A stretch of DNA of 47,882 bases, taken from the IMG/VR virus record IMGVR_UViG_3300029585_000017. The stretch is one strand, 5' to 3'. The DNA is from a virus. The notes under the pieces were generated by a model, which was not told the origin of the DNA, made no database searches, and worked only from the letters and a program-made list of their open reading frames with translations. A program made the position numbers and the translations under genes. Below, piece after piece: positions 1,639 to 38,560 of the stretch. The number at the start of each line of letters is the position of its first letter. Position 1 is the stretch's first letter.

Positions 1639-4294
1639 TTATGCCTCCTTTTCAGGAGGTTTAATCACAGAAGCTTCTCCTCTAACGTTTCCAGACGGAG
1701 CGTCTATAGATGAGAACAACTTCGAATTAACCAAACAAGGATTCCGTCGTAGACGTTTAGGTCTAAACGCTGTCTCTAATGAAGTACTATTAGAGAGCCG
1801 TGTGTCTAATCCAAAAGATATTACAACATTCTTATGGGATAACAACGGAAGTACAGGTCAGGAATTTCTTGTAGTAACATTAAAAAATGAAATACTAATT
1901 TACGATGTAACGGATGCAGTACCCGGTGATAAGCTTGTTTACAAAACATCTGTATCTGGGAACACTTCATCATTGTCAATTACCTCTCATGCTGGCCAGT
2001 TGATTATCGCCAATGGTGAAGCAGATATTACGATATTAACCTCTTTAGGTAATAATCTCTTTTCTGAACGTAAAGAGCGTTTGAAAATACGAGATAGAGT
2101 AGGTATCCCAGATTATTCTCGTGATACCGATTTAGATAGGAAGGTAAGCCTGCTGAATGCAGCTAAGTCCTCCTACCGTCCTTCAAGTAATGAACTTTAT
2201 TTAGACCCGGGTTATCCTTATTTAATCACCCCTCCGTCTGTAACTCCGGCTATAGATGTTCGTTATGATTTCGTAGGCACTCGATTAATAAGTGATGAAA
2301 CCACAGACGGAAACCGTACACTTCGTACCGAGTTAACTAGTTCGGTAGAGTATGAAGAGTTCCAAGGATACCCTATTGAGAGTTTTGTATTAACACGTCG
2401 TTTCTCGTCTGGGGTCCCTTATGAGCTCAGTGTAGTATTCCAAGATGGTTTTTACAATAATACTATTGCAACTCCATTCCTGAGTGGGGGGAGTCTCAGT
2501 GTAGTAACTGGTATTGAGTATACGATAAACTTGACAGAAGGGGAGTATAACAATTTCTTTAATCTCTCAACACCATTATGGTTAAGTGAATCTAATTACA
2601 CCAATCATCCGCATATCTATAACTTGTGGAATCAAGGATGGGGTGAGCGCAGAATGACACCCGGAAATACTACAACCTTGATACCCCCTATTGATGAGTT
2701 CCACGCGGTGACTAATCTCCTCCCAGCAAACTCCGATAATATCAATTCTGTACTTTACGCTAACAATCAGAATGATAGTAACAGAACTGCTGACCGTTTC
2801 CACCCTCAAGATTTAGAAGCTAATCCTCAAGGCTCTAGCGTTTCCCCTCAAGGGCGTTATATTATTGACGCACTCGATAGAGGAAACTCAAGAGCTAGCG
2901 CTTTTAATAAAGATCTTCTTGAGAAAGGAGAGGTTGAACGTGCGCAGAAATCTAAGCTGAGTTACGAAGATACCCTTGGAGGTGCTACTACAGTCGCTGA
3001 GTATGCAGGACGTGTGTGGTATGCTGGCTTCTCAGGGGACTCCGCAGGAAGTACGCTTAAACTTTCCAATAAGATATTGTATAGCCAAACTGGTGATGAT
3101 AACCTGTTGTCTTGTTATCAAGAAGCAGATCCCACCTCGAACACCGACAGTAACCTTGTTGACACTGACGGTGGATGGGTGAGTATTGATGCTATTGATG
3201 AAGTAATAAAACTCGTACCTACAGACACAGCGTTGATTGTATTCGCTACTAATGGTGTGTGGGCTGTAGCAGGTATCGATGGTAATACATTTAAACCTAC
3301 GAGTTCAATGGTTCTCAAGGTAACAGATAAAGGTTCAGTAAATCCACAGAACATCGTTCAAGTTGATGCTGACATTTTCTTCTGGGCTAAAGATGGTTTA
3401 TATCAACTTAAGTCTAATGGTTACGCAACATTTGAACTTGTGCCTATGACTAAACTAACTATAAACAGTTTGGTACTAGATCTCTCCCAAGAAGATTTCG
3501 AAGGGATGTCTGGAGCATATGACGAACGTTTGGATAGAATAGTGTGGATTATTACAGGGGGGTCAGGTGTTTCAGAGAGACGAGAGTTAATTTACCATCT
3601 AGCTTTCCAAAGCTTTACTATCAACACTTTCTACAGAGGCGCAGGTGACAATGATTTTGTTGAGGCATTGGCAGTTGTTAAGACACCACAGTTCGTATCA
3701 AAATCTACCCCCACTAGCGTTGTAGCGGGTTTGGACAATGTTGTAGCTGGCAGTGACAATGTTGTAGTAGATACTTCTGAAAGAGACGGGAGCCCTTCAA
3801 GAGTTGCATACGTATCTTTACGTAACGCTCAAGACGGTGACTATTTATTCTTCTCTGATTTAGTAAGAGATGACTATAAAGATTGGGGAGTTGTGGACGC
3901 ACCAGCCCTATTACTCACAGGTTATGTAACAGGTGGAGATACTTCGCGTATGAAGCAAGTCCCCTATCTTACATTACATTGTAACAGGACTGAGACAGAT
4001 GCTACTATGACAGGTGTTCAGAATGAATCAAGCTGTCTTGTGCAAAGTCAATGGGAGTGGACTAATGATCCATTCGCTAACAAGTGGAGCCCTAAGTTCC
4101 AAGGTTATCGTTTACAGCGTCCTCAGATTCGAGGTATCGGTCAACCTGTAGCTGAAGGTATCGAAGTGGTTACCACTAAGAATAAGCTACGAGGCAGAGG
4201 GCGTACTGTTAGTCTGTTATTCTCAACAGAGCCTGAGAAGGATTGTCAAATCCTCGGTTGGAGTATGATTGCAGGAGCAAGTGGAAATGTCTAG
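1613..4294 (+). CDS. Tail tubular protein B-like / nozzle protein (by size and position)
   Basis: Long ORF. I prefer the ATG at 1613 (MARSLQQLNYASF) over the track start 1559. Position matches T7 gp12. Confidence 0.6.
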   Translation: MARSLQQLNYASFSGGLITEASPLTFPDGASIDENNFELTKQGFRRRRLGLNAVSNEVLLESRVSNPKDITTFLWDNNGSTGQEFLVVTLKNEILIYDVTDAVPGDKLVYKTSVSGNTSSLSITSHAGQLIIANGEADITILTSLGNNLFSERKERLKIRDRVGIPDYSRDTDLDRKVSLLNAAKSSYRPSSNELYLDPGYPYLITPPSVTPAIDVRYDFVGTRLISDETTDGNRTLRTELTSSVEYEEFQGYPIESFVLTRRFSSGVPYELSVVFQDGFYNNTIATPFLSGGSLSVVTGIEYTINLTEGEYNNFFNLSTPLWLSESNYTNHPHIYNLWNQGWGERRMTPGNTTTLIPPIDEFHAVTNLLPANSDNINSVLYANNQNDSNRTADRFHPQDLEANPQGSSVSPQGRYIIDALDRGNSRASAFNKDLLEKGEVERAQKSKLSYEDTLGGATTVAEYAGRVWYAGFSGDSAGSTLKLSNKILYSQTGDDNLLSCYQEADPTSNTDSNLVDTDGGWVSIDAIDEVIKLVPTDTALIVFATNGVWAVAGIDGNTFKPTSSMVLKVTDKGSVNPQNIVQVDADIFFWAKDGLYQLKSNGYATFELVPMTKLTINSLVLDLSQEDFEGMSGAYDERLDRIVWIITGGSGVSERRELIYHLAFQSFTINTFYRGAGDNDFVEALAVVKTPQFVSKSTPTSVVAGLDNVVAGSDNVVVDTSERDGSPSRVAYVSLRNAQDGDYLFFSDLVRDDYKDWGVVDAPALLLTGYVTGGDTSRMKQVPYLTLHCNRTETDATMTGVQNESSCLVQSQWEWTNDPFANKWSPKFQGYRLQRPQIRGIGQPVAEGIEVVTTKNKLRGRGRTVSLLFSTEPEKDCQILGWSMIAGASGNV

Positions 4295-31119: not shown

Positions 31120-31464
31120 TTACTTCTTTTTACCCTGTTCGATAGCCTGACCAGCTGCCTTAATTCTTAATTTTAGGTTGGCAGCCACGTCGGTCAGACT
31201 ATACCCCGCAACCTTGATGGATGCATAAAAGATTGGGAGCACTAAGTAAGGAACTAAGGCAACACGTCTACCGATAGACCCCCATGCTTCAAGGTCGAAT
31301 CCCGTTACGAGGGGCGACCAGCTTAGGGAATCCCAGCAGGAAAGTAAGAGCACGCTGACATGAGCACCAAGCATCACAAGAAATGTGAATAAGAAAGTGC
31401 GTAGCCAGTTGCTAACCTTAGATGGAAGTGATGGAAGAGATGGTTTCTTTATACCAGAAGTCAT
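31120..31464 (-). CDS. Multi-pass membrane protein
   Basis: 114-aa ORF with hydrophobic segments, AGGTAC RBS. Confidence 0.55.
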   Translation of the reverse strand: MTSGIKKPSLPSLPSKVSNWLRTFLFTFLVMLGAHVSVLLLSCWDSLSWSPLVTGFDLEAWGSIGRRVALVPYLVLPIFYASIKVAGYSLTDVAANLKLRIKAAGQAIEQGKKK

Positions 31465-31492
31465 AACAGTACCTCTATAATTTAATTAGTAT

Positions 31493-31801
31493 TTACGGGA
31501 CGCTCCCATTAGCTAGGGATACCCCCGCCTCCCAGATAAGTAGCTTTCTCCACTTATCGGGAATCATAAGTTGTAGTTGATTAAGAAAGATGTCGAATGA
31601 TTCATCTCCTCGCTCTAAGAGGAGTTCGAGGTGTTCATTAGTTTCGTCTTTCTTGTCAAGCATTAAGTGTGTCACAATTGCATTGCTATGGTAATAAGTT
31701 CCTACGATTAACGCAGCAACTAGGATACCTAACTTAAATCGCCATTCAGCGAAAGACTTTCTTTTCTGTTTGAACCACCCCGCTATTGCGGGTATTATCA
31801 T
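31493..31801 (-). CDS. Membrane protein
   Basis: 102-aa ORF, TM LGILVAALIVGTYY. RBS cassette AGGTACATATT-ATG is identical to that of 32626-33192. Confidence 0.55.
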   Translation of the reverse strand: MIIPAIAGWFKQKRKSFAEWRFKLGILVAALIVGTYYHSNAIVTHLMLDKKDETNEHLELLLERGDESFDIFLNQLQLMIPDKWRKLLIWEAGVSLANGSVP

Positions 31802-32625
31802 AATATGTACCTGTATTATAGATGGATTTAATACTCAACAACTGTTAGCCACTATCATGTTGTATCATAGCGTTAGACTCCCGATGCTTTTCACACACCT
31901 GTCAATACTGTGAGGGATAGTTATTTACATGAGTACACTTCGATAGTTTCTATGCATGTTATCTATCTGGGACTTATATTACTCGTGTCTAGTCCTTACA
32001 AAGACACTGCCTTGGATTTGTTGTGCTCCATAGCTTATCCTTACTAACCATCTGCATATGAGTTCAGGGAGCTGAGAAGTCTATCACATATTTATACTGT
32101 CATCGATTGTAACAGTAACTAGCTTCGTTATATTCGCAGTGAGACTATTGATGAATAGTCCATACCCGCTCCGCTTTTACGCCGACACGGAGTAGCCGGA
32201 TACTTGCTAGTAATAGAAGGGACATTGTTTGATCAACTGCTACGAGTTGCAATCGCAGAGCCCATCATGCTATCGCTGGTCACGTTTCTTCACACCAACC
32301 CATCATGGCGCTACCCAATCAAACCACCAAGTGAAGAAGTATAGCTTAGTTTAACCACATACCAAGTGGCTTTTACTAACCTCATTTCCTATAACGTACT
32401 GAGGTGTTGCTCAGAATCACTTCAAGGGATTGTTTCTACCGCTGGTATTACCATACAGCACCCTATTTAGTTTTCATCTAAGTCTTTTACTTATTACACT
32501 AGTGCGCTAATAACTTTACACTCCCGATACGAGGGACGCACTATTTACTTCCGGACATTTTTCCAATGATACCAATTCGTACCACCATACCATGAGGAGT
32601 ACATTAGATTGTAATGTCATGATGC

Positions 32626-33192
32626 TTATGCTTCATCAAACTGTGCTGCAAGCTCACACAAGGTCATCAACTGACGCATGTCAGTATCTCGTGCTCGCAA
32701 TACATTGACCAAGTCTTTCATTTCGAAGAGGGGTTCACCTTCTTCATCTTTGGCGTTGAATGCCTTATCCAGTGCATTACCTACAGTTTTCTTGTAGTCA
32801 GTAGGTTTCTTTTCTGGCTTTTTACCATTTTCTTCGAACCAATCCCAGACCGACTTATCAGAGTCATAGAACTCTTTAGCCTTAGCCTTTTTACTGTCAT
32901 GGTTCTTTTTCTTAGCGTGCTTTTTACCGAACGCTTCTTCAGTAGAGTCCCAATCCCATCCCACAAACTTAGGGAAGAATTGCATAGCGACTTTCTTATA
33001 CGCAGGTTTTAGACCAGCGATAAAGGAATTGATTGAAGACACATCATTACAGCGGTTGGTCTCTGCCCAATCGTCATAAACATACGTTAATAGATTTTTA
33101 CAGACAGTTGAGAACTCAGTGTCAGTAATCGCTGCTGCTTTGTGGAACTTGCTGATTTGCTGCGCTATCGCAGACTTAGTAAATTTAGCCAT
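32626..33192 (-). CDS. Hypothetical protein with Lys-rich central region; the only >60-aa ORF inside the coding-poor island
   Basis: 188-aa ORF, AGGTACATATT-ATG cassette, segment GKKHAKKKNHDSKKAKAKE. Confidence 0.6.
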   Translation of the reverse strand: MAKFTKSAIAQQISKFHKAAAITDTEFSTVCKNLLTYVYDDWAETNRCNDVSSINSFIAGLKPAYKKVAMQFFPKFVGWDWDSTEEAFGKKHAKKKNHDSKKAKAKEFYDSDKSVWDWFEENGKKPEKKPTDYKKTVGNALDKAFNAKDEEGEPLFEMKDLVNVLRARDTDMRQLMTLCELAAQFDEA

Positions 33193-33294
33193 AATATGTA
33201 CCTACTATAAATTGCATTGAATATTATCCTCGTAAGAGGTGGAAAGATTTGGAAAGTTGCATGGTTTGATGCGTACCACACTCACGCTTTAGTT

Positions 33295-33309
33295 TTGAGT
33301 GAGCAAGAA
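33295..33309. repeat. Left arm of a perfect 15-bp inverted repeat (TTGAGTGAGCAAGAA)
   Basis: Reverse complement of 34633-34647, verified base by base. Confidence 0.9.
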
Positions 33310-33468
33310 TAACCTATAGGCATATCCTCACTACCAGAACCAATCGAGTGTGTCCTTTCATAAGCATATCTCCTATAGGAAGTTGTGTGTTTATTGCGGT
33401 TGTTCAGCCACTCCCCACACTGAACTATTGACCTAACGACTTGGGGCGTTAGTTTCGGTCGTGTCGTC

Positions 33469-33483
33469 GGATGTAATACATCC
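33469..33483. promoter_or_regulatory. Palindrome GGATGTA-A-TACATCC containing the iteron core
   Basis: TCGGATGTA at 33467-33475 equals the iteron motif of 21541-21626, here as an inverted pair. Confidence 0.5.
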
Positions 33484-33872
33484 ACTTATCTACTGTTACC
33501 TGACTTCTTTTGATTCGCTCATAGTTACACGAATGGGACTACCTTTCTTTTGCCAAGTGGTGGAAGTTACGCCACTAGTTCGCGGTAACTGCTTTGGACA
33601 CAGCCCACTAGTCGAGCATTTGAGTTCTTTCGTGCTGCCCTCAGTTCTAGCACGTTTGGGATTTAGTTGCTACTTGCTACAGCTTGCTACACTGTAGAGG
33701 GGCTACAACATTTACACTACACGTTAACACCTCAGAAAATTTTCTCGCAATAATCCTACTATCGGCGCATCGCAAAACCTACCCCACTCAGTGGAGTTAA
33801 GCGTTACATGGTGATTTAGCTATCACTTCACGCTTATGTTTTGTCATAGTGTAGGCTTAACACTGATAGAGC

Positions 33873-33900
33873 ATATTCGTATCAGCTACATTATTGTCAA
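33873..33900 (-). promoter_or_regulatory. Weak sigma70-like promoter candidate (TTGACA-N16-GAATAT)
   Basis: Consensus -35, poor -10. Shares TGTAGCTGATA with the promoter at 34707. Confidence 0.3.
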
Positions 33901-34445
33901 ATCTTATTAAGTATCAATAACCTAATAAGCACTTGTCACACGTTTAACATTAACATTTAAGTTAATGTCTATTTGACCTATCACATTGCTTATAGACAAA
34001 ATTAATTTATATAGCGGCACACACAAGACTACTAATCTGCGTACTCTAAGGAATCCCACGGCAAACCCACGTCCATTGATAGGGAGATTCTGTCTCACGA
34101 CGTTAACCTATATCTCTGTCAGACGCACACGTTTATCTAGTGTTATCCGCTTCTGTTATCCTAATAGGGCGCGGTAGTAAAGACACACGGCGCATTATAC
34201 CTATTAAGCAAAGAGTTACTTGCACTAACTCACTAACCCAACCATAGCCTATCAATCAAAGCGGATTACGCACTAATCAAAGCTATGCTCTATAATATTA
34301 CGAGCTTTCCCTACTCAATTTCAGTATGGATAAGAGTCTATACACTTGCATCATTGACCAAGTACCTTGCCATATCTTGTATGTGTAGCCGTGGCTAACC
34401 AAGACAGCGAACAAACCACATGACCTAGCTCAATCTCTATTATCA

Positions 34446-34460
34446 CAATGTGATAGTAAA
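34446..34460 (-). promoter_or_regulatory. Operator-like 15-mer TTTACTATCACATTG, overlapping the perfect palindrome TATCACA-A-TGTGATA (34441-34455)
   Basis: Identical to 23872-23886 (-). Confidence 0.45.
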
Positions 34461-34590
34461 GCGTGACGTTAAGACAACAAATCTAACATTCACCAAGTCG
34501 CCTATCTTTCTTTTAAGTGTGGATAGATTCACACCATGTTTTCGTTATTAAGCGTTATCTCGCTTTGTCAGGGTAATCACTTCCCTATCG

Positions 34591-34618
34591 ATTATACGTG
34601 AACCTATCACAAAGTCAA
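34591..34618 (-). promoter_or_regulatory. Sigma70-type early promoter (TTGACT-N16-TATAAT)
   Basis: The - strand reads CCTTGACTTTGTGATAGGTTCACGTATAATCG, with an A/T-rich upstream element. The spacer contains TGTGATAG. Confidence 0.65.
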
Positions 34619-34632
34619 GGTTTATTTTAACT

Positions 34633-34647
34633 TTCTTGCTCACTCAA
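34633..34647. repeat. Right arm of the perfect 15-bp inverted repeat
   Basis: The + strand TTCTTGCTCACTCAA is the reverse complement of 33295-33309. Confidence 0.9.
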
Positions 34648-34706
34648 GGCGAGCTATCAAGATGCTTTCCACGTCACCTTAATTGCTTTCCTTTTAGTAT
34701 GTAGCC

Positions 34707-34735
34707 ATTCTATCAGCTACATATTGAAAGGTCAA
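34707..34735 (-). promoter_or_regulatory. Sigma70-type early promoter (TTGACC-N17-TAGAAT) with an A-rich UP-like element
   Basis: The - strand reads AAAATAATGCTTGACCTTTCAATATGTAGCTGATAGAATGG. Confidence 0.65.
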
Positions 34736-34738
34736 GCA

Positions 34739-34879
34739 TTATTTTCTACGCAACCAATTTAAACAATCTTCTTTTATATGAGGGTAATGTTCTTCTATGT
34801 GCTCCACTACCTCCTCCCATTTGGCAGCCCTTACAACGAGATGCTGATAATCTGATTTAAAATCATCAAGGGTTAACAT
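34739..34879 (-). CDS. 46-aa early protein, below the ORF-track threshold
   Basis: I translated it by hand: MLTLDDFKSDYQHLVVRAAKWEEVVEHIEEHYPHIKEDCLNWLRRK. AAGAGGTAC RBS; downstream of the promoter at 34918. Confidence 0.55.
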   Translation of the reverse strand: MLTLDDFKSDYQHLVVRAAKWEEVVEHIEEHYPHIKEDCLNWLRRK

Positions 34880-34917
34880 ATTGTACCTCTTTCACTTTCC
34901 TATTAGATAGCTCACTC

Positions 34918-34946
34918 ATTATAAGAGAGCTAGATTAAAAGGTCAA
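34918..34946 (-). promoter_or_regulatory. Near-consensus sigma70-type early promoter (TTGACC-N17-TATAAT) with an A-tract UP element
   Basis: The - strand reads AAAAATATAAAAAAAGCTTGACCTTTTAATCTAGCTCTCTTATAATGAG. Confidence 0.75.
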
Positions 34947-34961
34947 GCTTTTTTTATATTT

Positions 34962-35081
34962 TTAATTCCCTTTAGGGAAGTCACGGATTAAACAACGCAT
35001 CGCGTATAAATAAGCTATGTTATGTTTATCATCCATACAGCCAATTAATATAAAACGTTTCTCGTAGTCTGCTACACTCAT
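34962..35081 (-). CDS. 39-aa early protein, below the ORF-track threshold
   Basis: I translated it by hand: MSVADYEKRFILIGCMDDKHNIAYLYAMRCLIRDFPKGN. TAA-T-ATG junction with the upstream gene. Confidence 0.4.
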   Translation of the reverse strand: MSVADYEKRFILIGCMDDKHNIAYLYAMRCLIRDFPKGN

Positions 35082-35082
35082 A

Positions 35083-35916
35083 TTAAGCCGCCAGTTTATT
35101 GTGAATGGATGCCCACGTTTTCTTTCTAAATCCGCTAGGCTTTTCTGCCTTGCTAGGGATATTGTCCAACGTTATCCCGAACTTGTCAAGCTCTTTTTGT
35201 TCAGTCTTTGAGAGCTTAATCACATTTTCACTACCAGTATTATCACTGCTAGGCTTAGGCTCATCCACCATGCTAAAAGGCACATCATTATCGCTAGCTT
35301 CTTGCATAGCTTTTGAACTCTCTTCGTACTTTTGGTCAATGATAGCACGTGCGTCTTGAGTTTGCCAACTTTCCTCCACCGTGTTATCAATGACGTCTTC
35401 AAACTCTTCTTTAAGTGTGCCGTCGGGATTGGCGCAATTACCCCCGTACAACTTGTCATGGTCAAGGTTTGAGGGAGGCATACTCCCCCACACTTCACCC
35501 CCTATGCGCTTAATACCGTCGTCACAAATCCGGTATGTAGCCCCACTCAAAGTAAATTGGGGTTCTTTCATTGGTCGAATTTTATACGCTGCTAACTTGT
35601 GACCATCAATAACTATTTCAGTATCGATTGGCTCGAATGGTTCTACATCCTTGCCAAGTAAACAGCGATGAATATCAGAAAGGATCTTGTTCATCCATTC
35701 GTCTAGCACTCGCTTGTCACCTTTAACGCTGTTATTAATGCGCTTGTCACACATATTATAAAACTCTGACAAGTACATCAATTCACTAAACGTACTAGCA
35801 CGCCACACACGGACACCCCCTTTACGGGTACGCTGCATGTAGTTTGTCCAACTTACAGCTAATACAGGATCTGTGTCTAACTCCGGAAAAGCGAGTTTAA
35901 ACTTATCAACTTTCAT
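35083..35916 (-). CDS. Early protein of unknown function (277 aa)
   Basis: ATG at 35916 (MKVDKFKLAF) follows GGAGAT and lies just downstream of the promoter at 35950. Confidence 0.65.
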   Translation of the reverse strand: MKVDKFKLAFPELDTDPVLAVSWTNYMQRTRKGGVRVWRASTFSELMYLSEFYNMCDKRINNSVKGDKRVLDEWMNKILSDIHRCLLGKDVEPFEPIDTEIVIDGHKLAAYKIRPMKEPQFTLSGATYRICDDGIKRIGGEVWGSMPPSNLDHDKLYGGNCANPDGTLKEEFEDVIDNTVEESWQTQDARAIIDQKYEESSKAMQEASDNDVPFSMVDEPKPSSDNTGSENVIKLSKTEQKELDKFGITLDNIPSKAEKPSGFRKKTWASIHNKLAA

Positions 35917-37489: not shown

Positions 37490-37517
37490 AAGTTTACCTT
37501 AATCAATATAAATGGTC

Positions 37518-37573
37518 GGGAAGATATGGAGAGTTGGAAGCGCCCTCAACAATGGCTGCTCTCCACTCTTCCC
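37518..37573 (-). promoter_or_regulatory. Long interrupted hairpin (7+7 bp) in the early leader
   Basis: GGGAAGA/TCTTCCC and TGGAGAG/CTCTCCA arms, 25-nt loop, small asymmetric bulge. Lies between the 35-aa ORF and the 146-aa gene. Confidence 0.55.
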
Positions 37574-37580
37574 GTTAATA

Positions 37581-37688
37581 CTAGTTAGCTAATGTATACA
37601 CCAATGCATACATGAACCACATTGGAGGCGACATTAATGCAAGTGTTGTACACGCTATGCAATACACTAACTCTTTGAATGTTTCCAT
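37581..37688 (-). CDS. 35-aa hydrophobic microprotein candidate
   Basis: I translated it by hand: METFKELVYCIACTTLALMSPPMWFMYALVYTLAN. GGAGG lies 6 nt before the ATG, but this SD abuts the -10 of the promoter at 37700, so it would be absent from that transcript. Confidence 0.35.
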   Translation of the reverse strand: METFKELVYCIACTTLALMSPPMWFMYALVYTLAN

Positions 37689-37699
37689 GCTGTGCCTCC

Positions 37700-37729
37700 A
37701 TTATAACCTAGTTTGTTTCAAGTTGTCAA
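37700..37729 (-). promoter_or_regulatory. Consensus sigma70-type promoter (TTGACA-N18-TATAAT), leftmost-firing early promoter
   Basis: The - strand reads TTGACAACTTGAAACAAACTAGGTTATAAT. Confidence 0.7.
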
Positions 37730-38135
37730 GTGTTTGTTTCTTTGTCCTAACATATCAAAGCTAACAATGACTTACATGATATGAACAGAGCTTTGCGCTA
37801 GGGTTTTAACGTCTTTATCCTTGACTTGCCGCTTGCTCTATTGACGATGTGAATCATCTCATAAGGTTCATCACTTGTCAAACACTTTGTTCTATTCTTT
37901 TCGACTTGGTAAGCATACTCTTTGCTATATAACTATCACTGCATCACTGCATAGGTAGTAAGCATTGTTTGGTAACGCTTGCCGTTTCGATGGATTAACA
38001 ATAAGCCTTTACGCATAGGATTACAAGCGCTAATTTAAACTATATACAATAGTGTGACCTACATCACATACCACTGTTTACCCTAAAGAGTAGACAGTCT
38101 GATGTACCACAACAAACAAATAAATAAAGAGGCAT

Positions 38136-38179
38136 ATGTCACGTTTTAGACGTTATGGAGGTATATATAAATATAACTA
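38136..38179 (+). promoter_or_regulatory. Phage-specific promoter-like element, copy A (TGTCAC-N19-TATATA), upstream of the tailspike operon
   Basis: ATGTCACGTTTTAGACGTTATGGAGGTATATATAAATATAACTA. It shares an identical 12-mer and an identical 20-mer with copy B. Confidence 0.6.
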
Positions 38180-38560
38180 CTAAGAACTGTAACTAATATA
38201 GTAATAAGTAATAATAAACACATACTATTAACATACTATATACATATACATAACAATGCGTTACTGGTAACACTCGCTTGCGTTCGCTTAAACCCCCTCA
38301 ATCCCTTGGTATATAAGGGCTGAGCTAATATTTAACATTGTTGTAACAAGGAAAATATGTTAATGGGGTGTAAAGCAACTGTTAACTATCTGTTACAAGA
38401 ATGTTACGAGCGTTTTGCTAGATATTGGGAAGGGGTGCATCGGGGGTACGCCCCCTTGGTATATTAATGCATTGAACCTTAAAATTTTCTCACAGAAAAT
38501 ATGAGTATACCCTTTCTTAGTGATAATTATTATTAGGCCAAATAATAGGAAAAGAAGTAA

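Follow-up and report, generated by a model that had tools for sequence, protein, structure and literature searches.

Two genes in the leftward-read early region of a marine Vibrio phage are separated by some 1.5 kb in which no gene is apparent, and it is with this segment, termed RNA1 here, that the present analysis is concerned. The phage is represented by IMG/VR virus record IMGVR_UViG_3300029585_000017, whose 47,882 nucleotides (nt) are referred to below as the window. It is a podophage of ~48 kb with open reading frames (ORFs) for a family A DNA polymerase, a primase-helicase, a 5'-3' exonuclease, a T7-like terminase, a portal and a capsid protein; a scan of the larger ORFs recognised neither an RNA polymerase nor a reverse transcriptase, and ARAGORN finds no tRNA genes in the window. 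Its closest kin are vibriophages of the Zobellviridae, namely the PS32B series, 464E53-1, 468E53-1, 521E56-1, 1.264.O, VPMCC5 and the oyster metagenome phage T4S1. Leftward-read genes extend from ~37.5 kb to 13.3 kb and RNA1 (33193-34738, (-) strand) is located 3.3 kb into this early region, between an ORF of 46 amino acids (aa) that ends at 34739 and a gene of 188 aa that starts at 33192. Comparison with relatives leads us to regard RNA1, with high confidence, as a selected RNA structure, and what kind of RNA it may be is considered after the evidence for this.

The locus is fixed. A gap of 1.48-1.72 kb is present at the identical position in all seven distinct GenBank lineages and in three full-length Logan contigs, and five partial Logan contigs, including the more distant L016, are also gene-free over the stretch that they cover. 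Independent gene callers leave the gap empty, as do Prodigal-type calls on Logan and JGI contigs. Nucleotide identity of the relatives to the window is 53-78% and is mosaic, with invariant blocks and variable stretches. These additional sequences came solely from GenBank phages and Logan contigs; protein and DNA-pattern scans of IMG/VR, scans of JGI metagenomes and a GTDB genome scan yielded no further relatives. L016 keeps the layout of gap, gene and second gap, with an RNA1 whose homology is clear (nhmmer E = 1.5e-94). L017 (JGI 3300039110) has gaps comparable in size, 1.67 kb (2333-4000) and 0.75 kb; the upstream one has a folding z-score of -6.3 against shuffles, yet is barely alignable to RNA1, and blastn against the phage collection gives no match for it. 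Either an analogous giant RNA or a highly diverged one could be encoded there. A covariance model for one RNA1 sub-domain (R1) matches the window and L016 only, missing L017-L020 and those phages that have an alternative module in its place.

The segment is non-coding. An earlier note on this DNA, made from the window alone, had described it as free of credible ORFs, and the (-) strand indeed carries only ORFs initiated by GTG or TTG, of 28-67 aa, none of which stays open across relatives. On neither strand is there a stop-free stretch of at least 50 codons common to 80% of 14 aligned sequences. Indel lengths modulo 3 (0:1:2) are 455:1676:824 in RNA1 and 117:0:0 in the adjoining 188-aa gene, and where substitutions in that gene show lag-3 and lag-6 peaks, those in RNA1 have no lag-3 signal. 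Conserved small ORFs, which the note had set down beforehand as speaking against it, were not found, there being neither a shared frame nor a coding signature.

The notion that several very small genes, or a recoded gene, are nevertheless hidden here draws in part on automated annotation. Four GenBank records, L001, L002, L003 and L005 (OZ196823, OX241559, OX241435 and OX241436), place small 'hypothetical proteins' here, 5-8 of them in RNA1 and 3-4 in RNA2, a second ORF-free segment considered below. Most are on the non-transcribed strand, their position, strand and length disagree between records, and they are very probably annotation artefacts. There is also a 15-codon ORF (33361..33314, (-) strand) that has GGAG 8 nt upstream, is within a CCUAUAGG/CCUAUAGG hairpin and is of equal length in five lineages. 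Its constant length is attributable to the enclosing hairpin, which fixes it; in VPMCC5 the ATG is lost and there is a 1-nt deletion, and the peptide is poorly conserved, with charge reversals. It may serve as a decoy for ribosomes or encode a leader peptide. With frame-shifting indels and no common open frame or periodicity, cryptic coding is highly improbable.

The evidence for structure comes from an alignment, A1, of 14 sequences and 1846 columns, for which RNAalifold gives a consensus fold of 357 pairs. In this fold 92.2% of cells are paired, as against 35-43% when the 3' partners are slid by 1-3 columns; 126 pairs are changed on both sides (38-48 in the slid controls), 320 cells bear a double-sided change (56-69 in the controls), and not one of 500 shuffles matched any observed pairing value. 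The transcribed strand has a consensus energy of -409.5; its reverse complement reaches -328, and alignments with shuffled columns lie at -100 to -118. Cells with G:U number 597 and those with A:C only 79, a 7.6-fold excess, and therefore the selected structure is that of the RNA of the strand read by the promoters (-). A dearth of covariation-supported helices, the other outcome that the earlier note had named as telling against it, is thus not what is seen, and its proposal of a transcribed, untranslated and structure-rich RNA is borne out by the lack of a coding signature together with the abundant, strand-specific covariation.

Because the structure had been predicted from the alignment on which it was scored, a hold-out test was run in which T4S1, VPMCC5 and L016 were scored against a structure obtained from the 12 closer sequences. 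Pairing is kept in 100 of 186 double changes (36/58 in T4S1, 33/69 in VPMCC5 and 31/59 in L016), a retention about twice the control rate, since with slid partners the total is ~50-56 (15-21 of ~45-55 for each sequence). In a cleanly alignable sub-domain of 108 nt (33522-33629) 8 of the 16 pairs are compensatory. Rfam 15 has no match at gathering score anywhere in the window and none of relevance at E <= 10 in 31400-35100. The possibility of a sponge for CsrA was discarded: GGA motifs are not enriched and just four are conserved.

The strand asymmetry also bears on whether the element acts as DNA, be it as an origin, a packaging site, a region through which RNA polymerase pulls in the entering genome, or a protein-binding control region with DNA hairpins or operators. 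Clustered promoters are the arrangement at the left end of T7, and there is such a cluster here; one of its members, P2 (Table 1), is bracketed by a possible operator inverted repeat (helices 1-2), and some palindromes are invariant. However, the excess of G:U-compatible changes, the better folding of the transcribed strand than of its complement and the distance of up to 1.3 kb between pairing partners all point to RNA. Further, the segment lacks the iterons expected of an origin, and tandem repeats, its GC content of 0.39-0.41 is about that of the remaining genome, and it is inside the early operon rather than at the divergent AT-rich region of 37490-38560. A role at the DNA level is accordingly rated as very improbable.

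The most far-reaching pairing, overlooked in the earlier note, is between the arms of a perfect 15-nt inverted repeat 1323 nt apart, for which the chance expectation in 3.7 kb is estimated at ~0.006. The arms form helix 5, which is 95% paired in 11 rows with two compensatory pairs and U:G wobbles. This closing helix, of 11-15 bp, is retained in all 12 full-length relatives and also in L016, its changes being mostly U:G-compatible on the (-) strand, and it bounds a core of ~1.35 kb. Inverted repeats of 15 bp bounding a stretch of the size of an insertion sequence (IS), and a large multi-domain RNA structure within them, might be taken as what remains of a mobile element: a group I or group II intron without an ORF, or an IS or miniature inverted-repeat transposable element (MITE) with terminal inverted repeats. 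Yet there is no Rfam intron or ribozyme match even at E <= 10, no transposase, reverse transcriptase or endonuclease ORF, no target-site duplication or other flanking direct repeat beside the arms, and no extra copy of RNA1 in the window. The flanking genes are intact, the locus is identical in every relative and the arms diverge by U:G-compatible changes, so that scarcely any credence can be given to such an origin, the least probable of the explanations considered.

Within the bounds of the closing helix is a variable 5' domain, the window's version of which is common only to Logan contigs L011 and L014, other phages having a different module and an extra promoter; its hairpin UAUCAC/GUGAUA is CUCUCA/UGAGAG in lgn11. 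There follows a conserved multi-domain core in which the best-covarying helices are 19-21, 33, 39-41, 44-45 and 50-51, with almost all pairs covarying in helices 19, 20, 33, 39 and 40, and which also holds the CCUAUAGG hairpin (33313-33379). The hairpins listed in the earlier note are mostly present within a few bases of where it had put them. Its two-tier hairpin (33799-33835) proves to be the best-covarying element, with compensatory pairs numbering 7 of 7 in helix 39 and 4 of 5 in helix 40: the stem AAGCGU...ACGCUU of the window is AAGAGG...CCUCUU in PS32B-8 and AUAAUG...CAUUAU in 1.264.O, with a constant internal loop, GAAG/CCAUGUA. Covariation also supports the stems CGTGCT/AGCACG (33631-33654) and CATTAAC/GTTAATG (helix 32), while for the proposed CTAACG/CGTTAG there is none, the overlapping GACGAC/GUCGUU (helix 50) covarying instead. 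The 12-bp palindrome AGAAAATTTTCT exists, though at 33734-33745, 3 nt from the position that had been estimated for it; its AAAAUUU core is invariant and the complete 12-mer is present in most sequences. The two copies of CCTATAGG that had been pointed out (33313-33320 and 33372-33379) pair with each other as helix 53, and the thrice-repeated heptamer, GTAGCAA on the transcribed strand (33667-33690), is present in a poorly conserved linker.

Among close relatives the sub-domain at 33522-33629 comes in two forms, one of the GUGUCCAAAGC type and one of the GGAGUCCAAUCC type, and RNA1 is therefore modular. Whole sub-domains are exchanged between relatives with the flanking blocks remaining alignable.

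Both of the strong leftward promoters that had been recognised from the window, P2 and P3, are upheld by the conservation of their position in relatives. The -35 box of P2 is kept in 11 of 11 full-length A1 rows, and at the position of P3 relatives have one or two promoters, with 2-3 in tandem in L016, L006 and L001. A third, 'weak' promoter at 33873-33900 fares otherwise, as its -35 box is not conserved and its sequence belongs to conserved hairpins, helices 33 and 35, in which 8 of 10 and 1 of 9 pairs covary. The inverted repeat around the -10 box of P2 covaries (A1 helices 1-2) and represents an operator or else a hairpin of read-through transcripts; the first hairpin of the leader shows compensatory changes between lineages. 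P1, the promoter of the 46-aa ORF, and P2 are copies of one promoter module, 72% identical (repeat family D1; nhmmer E = 1.1e-11); in each an inverted repeat brackets the -10 box, and GGAAAG occurs 15-25 nt downstream. The same motif, or GGGAAG, is also found downstream of P3 and, in relatives, of an additional promoter, P4.

Table 1. Features of RNA1 and its surroundings in the window, in the direction of transcription, with the AGGTAC boxes placed last
Feature	Position	Strand	Remarks
P1 promoter, TTGACC-17-TATAAT	34918..34946	(-)	drives the 46-aa ORF
P2 promoter, TTGACC-17-TAGAAT	34707..34735	(-)	presumed start of RNA1
5' leader: AAAGGAAAGC motif and first hairpin, AAGGUG..loop ACGUGGAAAG..CAUCUU	34646..34694	(-)	helix 3, 95% paired
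Closing helix, 5' arm, UUGAGUGAGCAAGAA	34633..34647	(-)	helix 5, 15/15 complementary
P3 promoter, TTGACT-16-TATAAT	34591..34618	(-)	within the closing helix
Two small conserved hairpins past P3, UAGGGAAGUGAUUACCCU and AGCGAGAUAACGCU	34551..34587	(-)	helices 8 and 9
Variable 5' domain, ~300 nt	34245..34550	(-)	A1 columns ~290-655
Conserved multi-domain core, ~940 nt	33310..34244	(-)	A1 covariation, hold-out
Core invariant block AAGCAAUGUGAUAGGUC	33975-33991		
Core invariant block UGCGAUGCGC	33765-33774		
Core palindrome with invariant AAAAUUU	33734-33745		
Core invariant block GUGUCCAAAGC	33591-33601		
Closing helix, 3' arm, UUCUUGCUCACUCAA	33295..33309	(-)	helix 5
3' tail	33228..33281	(-)	conserved GUGUGGUACGCAUC-AAACCAUGC hairpin (33281-33259, helix 56), then terminator-like hairpin
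Terminator-like hairpin, CCUC-UUAC-GAGG	33228-33239	(-)	helix 58, conserved; the 188-aa gene has its ribosome-binding site ~35 nt further on
188-aa gene	32626..33192	(-)	between the two structured RNA segments; coding signatures
RNA2, second ORF-free structured segment, 0.83 kb	31802..32625	(-)	42/75 predicted pairs compensatory
AGGTAC boxes	33198-33203, 31807-31812, 34883-34888, 31469-31474	(-)	upstream of early-gene ATGs

The product of the 188-aa gene is Lys-rich and predicted to be all-helical (mean predicted local distance difference test score 79.5), with no Pfam, PHROG, significant NCBIfam, PDB or annotated viral fold match. Its family comprises at least 204 clusters of proteins of 170-240 aa, with homologues in Citrobacter phage CVT22, Salinivibrio phage CW02, Erwinia phage Pecta and Klebsiella phages, several of them near the head of the early operon. 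That it might be an obligate partner of the RNA was considered and rejected, there being no family or fold match to suggest it, and the homologues in 1.253.O and KZY1 having no large gaps beside them; the linkage of protein and RNA is therefore not universal. In CVT22, CW02 and Pecta the homologous gene is preceded by 0.5-2.2 kb of DNA that is non-coding or has few annotations. Profile hidden Markov models of RNA1 and RNA2 have no match in these three phages or in 1.253.O and KZY1, and with the protein present in distant Zobellviridae that have no recognisable RNA1 or RNA2, the RNAs are a trait of one vibriophage subclade.

RNA2, which had also been missed, sits between the 188-aa gene and the next gene, has no coding signature and probably shares a transcript with the 188-aa gene. 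Its invariant blocks include GGUAGAAACAAUCCC, CGU(C/U)AUAGGAA and CUUUGUAAGGACU, and a module of ~130 nt is in its 5' part in PS32B-type phages and in its 3' part in the window type; its single-sequence folding z-score is +0.25. Descent of RNA1 and RNA2 from a common ancestor by duplication was entertained and dropped, as they have no sequence similarity.

Two further observations concern the early region at large. Early-gene ATGs are preceded, 5-8 nt upstream, by an AGGTAC box in place of a canonical GGAGG Shine-Dalgarno sequence, and this is kept in relatives. Between the divergent early and structural operons a stretch of 1.07 kb (37490-38560) has no ORF of at least 90 aa; there are consensus promoters at and around it on both strands, for instance at 37729-37700 (12/12 matches), and GC drops to 0.345 in the 38-39-kb interval that covers its far end. 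The end of the genome, or the principal early control region, may be located here.

With what known systems is RNA1 to be compared? In GOLLD the 3' region is conserved and the 5' region less so (PMC12286853), and GOLLD and ROOL are phage- or prophage-encoded, often beside tRNA genes (PMC12286853). RNA1 is likewise phage-encoded, is without coding capacity, has many covariation-supported helices, and has a variable 5' domain followed by a conserved 3' core. It differs from GOLLD in the size of its core, ~1.35 kb as against ~800 nt, and in being away from tRNA genes, of which this phage has none, its place being in an early operon behind tandem sigma-70 promoters. ROOL and OLE, both of them large and ornate, have conserved loops and make symmetric kissing contacts through palindromes; the largely conserved palindromes of RNA1 (AGAAAAUUUUCU and the two CCUAUAGG copies) could serve similarly, a lead that their sequence suggests, but the size and host range of those RNAs are unlike those of RNA1. 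OLE works with the proteins OapA, OapB and OapC in the membranes of Firmicutes, and genes for these are absent here. Like GOLLD, ROOL and OLE, RNA1 is longer than 500 nt, non-coding and of multi-domain, covariation-supported structure, but it matches none of their Rfam models. It is thus nearest in kind to the ornate phage-associated RNAs GOLLD and ROOL without being a member of either family. It is larger than GOLLD, has strong comparative support, and is behind textbook early promoters of a compact lytic phage.

The early leader of T7 has tandem A1, A2 and A3 promoters and then an RNase III site, all within a few hundred nt and without a conserved multi-domain fold. Two to three strong host-type promoters in tandem, ~100-120 nt apart, similarly head the unit here, and processing of early RNA at double-stranded sites is plausible for RNA1; unlike the short T7 leader, however, these promoters are followed by 1.35 kb of covarying structure, and the unit is 3.3 kb inside the early region. 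Precursors of ribosomal RNA (rRNA) are another point of reference, with tandem strong promoters and a long-range helix that pairs the flanks of a large folded RNA. RNA1 has both, its folded RNA of ~1.4 kb being of a size like that of 16S, and helix 5 is just such a conserved pairing of 5' and 3' flanks. In contrast to them RNA1 has no rRNA similarity, its helix is of 11-15 bp rather than at least 20 bp, and one promoter is inside the stalk. Conserved stem-loops shortly past the early promoters P2 and P3, in a phage dependent on host RNA polymerase, also bring to mind putL and putR of HK022. A put site is ~70 nt with two stem-loops and cannot account for the 1.35-kb core.

Is RNA1, then, a leader or an RNA in its own right? 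It could be an exceptionally long, cis-acting, structured 5' untranslated region (UTR), with RNA2 a 3' UTR or spacer, both controlling the early transcript. Such a leader might shield 2.3 kb of untranslated RNA from Rho and RNases, provide for processing by RNase III or RNase E, mediate put-like antitermination as in HK022, or govern the timing and translation of the 188-aa gene and the middle genes downstream. Neither in the window nor in PS32B-8 is there a strong terminator between RNA1 and the 188-aa gene, and no promoter is present there or ahead of RNA2; a phage relying on host RNA polymerase needs a means of read-through, and small conserved hairpins come after each promoter. A Shine-Dalgarno-like GGAG and the 15-codon ORF are within the CCUAUAGG hairpin, and distant Zobellviridae place the homologous gene behind non-coding leaders of 0.5-1.1 kb. 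But ~350 predicted pairs, invariant loops and a closing helix spanning 1.35 kb exceed any cis regulator known to us, and a terminator-like hairpin with a U-rich tail does lie between RNA1 and the gene in T4S1 and L016, where it was scanned for, and in VPMCC5, where it was seen by eye. Other Zobellviridae express the homologous protein without large adjoining gaps, and the swapping of sub-domains with retention of the core has the look of a modular functional RNA. On balance a cis-acting leader seems rather unlikely, although it is the foremost of the alternatives. A 13-nt pairing between the tail of RNA1 (33259-33271) and the end of the 188-aa ORF was also looked at and, by eye, is not kept in relatives.

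That RNA1 is instead a discrete, functional, early-expressed structured non-coding RNA is, in our estimation, an evenly balanced proposition. Host sigma-70 RNA polymerase would start at the tandem early promoters P2 and P3 and proceed leftward, and the transcript would fold into a multi-domain structure of ~350 predicted bp. The closed core would be a discrete and abundant early RNA, made in quantity at the start of infection, its bounds set by the closing helix and possibly excised by a double-strand-specific RNase as are rRNAs from their precursors; alternatively or additionally, RNA1 may be ended at a leaky terminator hairpin, with read-through proceeding into the 188-aa gene and then RNA2. 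Its action, in host takeover or defence evasion, would depend on its fold, in which the invariant loops and junctions would provide contacts, either tertiary or with protein. Any specific role, whether host takeover, defence evasion or scaffolding, is to be viewed as doubtful at best.

Several considerations weigh against RNA1 as a discrete RNA, or against the strength of the comparative case for it. Its start, end, abundance and stability, like processing at the closing helix, action in trans and biological role, are deduced from sequence. The 5' arm of the closing helix is upstream of P3, and of P4 in relatives, and therefore transcripts from P3 or P4 would be unable to form the closed state; this suggests two isoforms, or pairing in trans by a short RNA from P2. 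The 3' hairpin of the window has no U-run, nor is there one in the relative PS32B-8, and so RNA1 may be merely the 5' UTR of the 188-aa gene. The consensus was derived by RNAalifold from the same alignment, which inflates the pairing statistics; the ~15 sequences represent few lineages, and the support consists of pair counts and not of per-helix significance of the R-scape type. Long-range helices 17 and 29 are invariant or missing in distant relatives, and the family is limited to the one vibriophage subclade. Folding of the single sequence is ordinary, with a z-score of -3.2 for RNA1 as compared with -1.9 and -2.5 for coding controls, and does not set it apart from them; taken as a class, promoter-like sites show just a mild enrichment (29 against 21.5 +/- 4.2 expected). 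It is therefore from comparison with relatives that the evidence for these features exceeding chance comes.

Few classes of large structured RNA are known to us beyond rRNA, RNase P, introns and the ornate RNAs OLE, GOLLD, ROOL and HEARO, and the literature searched holds no description of RNA1, whose covariation-supported core of ~1.35 kb would to our knowledge exceed in size every structured non-ribosomal RNA so far reported from bacterial viruses. That it represents a class of giant ornate RNA not described before, produced in large amounts during the opening minutes of infection as a particle of defined three-dimensional shape, possibly multimeric or protein-scaffolding, is a tentative proposal to which we lean less than to the broader one of a discrete RNA. 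If true, RNA1 and the unrelated RNA2 would together represent ~5% of a 48-kb genome spent on structured non-coding RNA, with sub-domains of RNA1 apparently swapped between phages as protein domains are. RNA1 is present in cultured phage-host pairs, those of the PS32B phages with Vibrio crassostreae, 1.264.O with V. splendidus and VPMCC5 with V. harveyi, and deletion, trans-complementation, pull-down, structure probing and cryo-electron microscopy are therefore feasible. Its occurrence in cultivable phages could thereby render the function of a giant phage RNA experimentally tractable.

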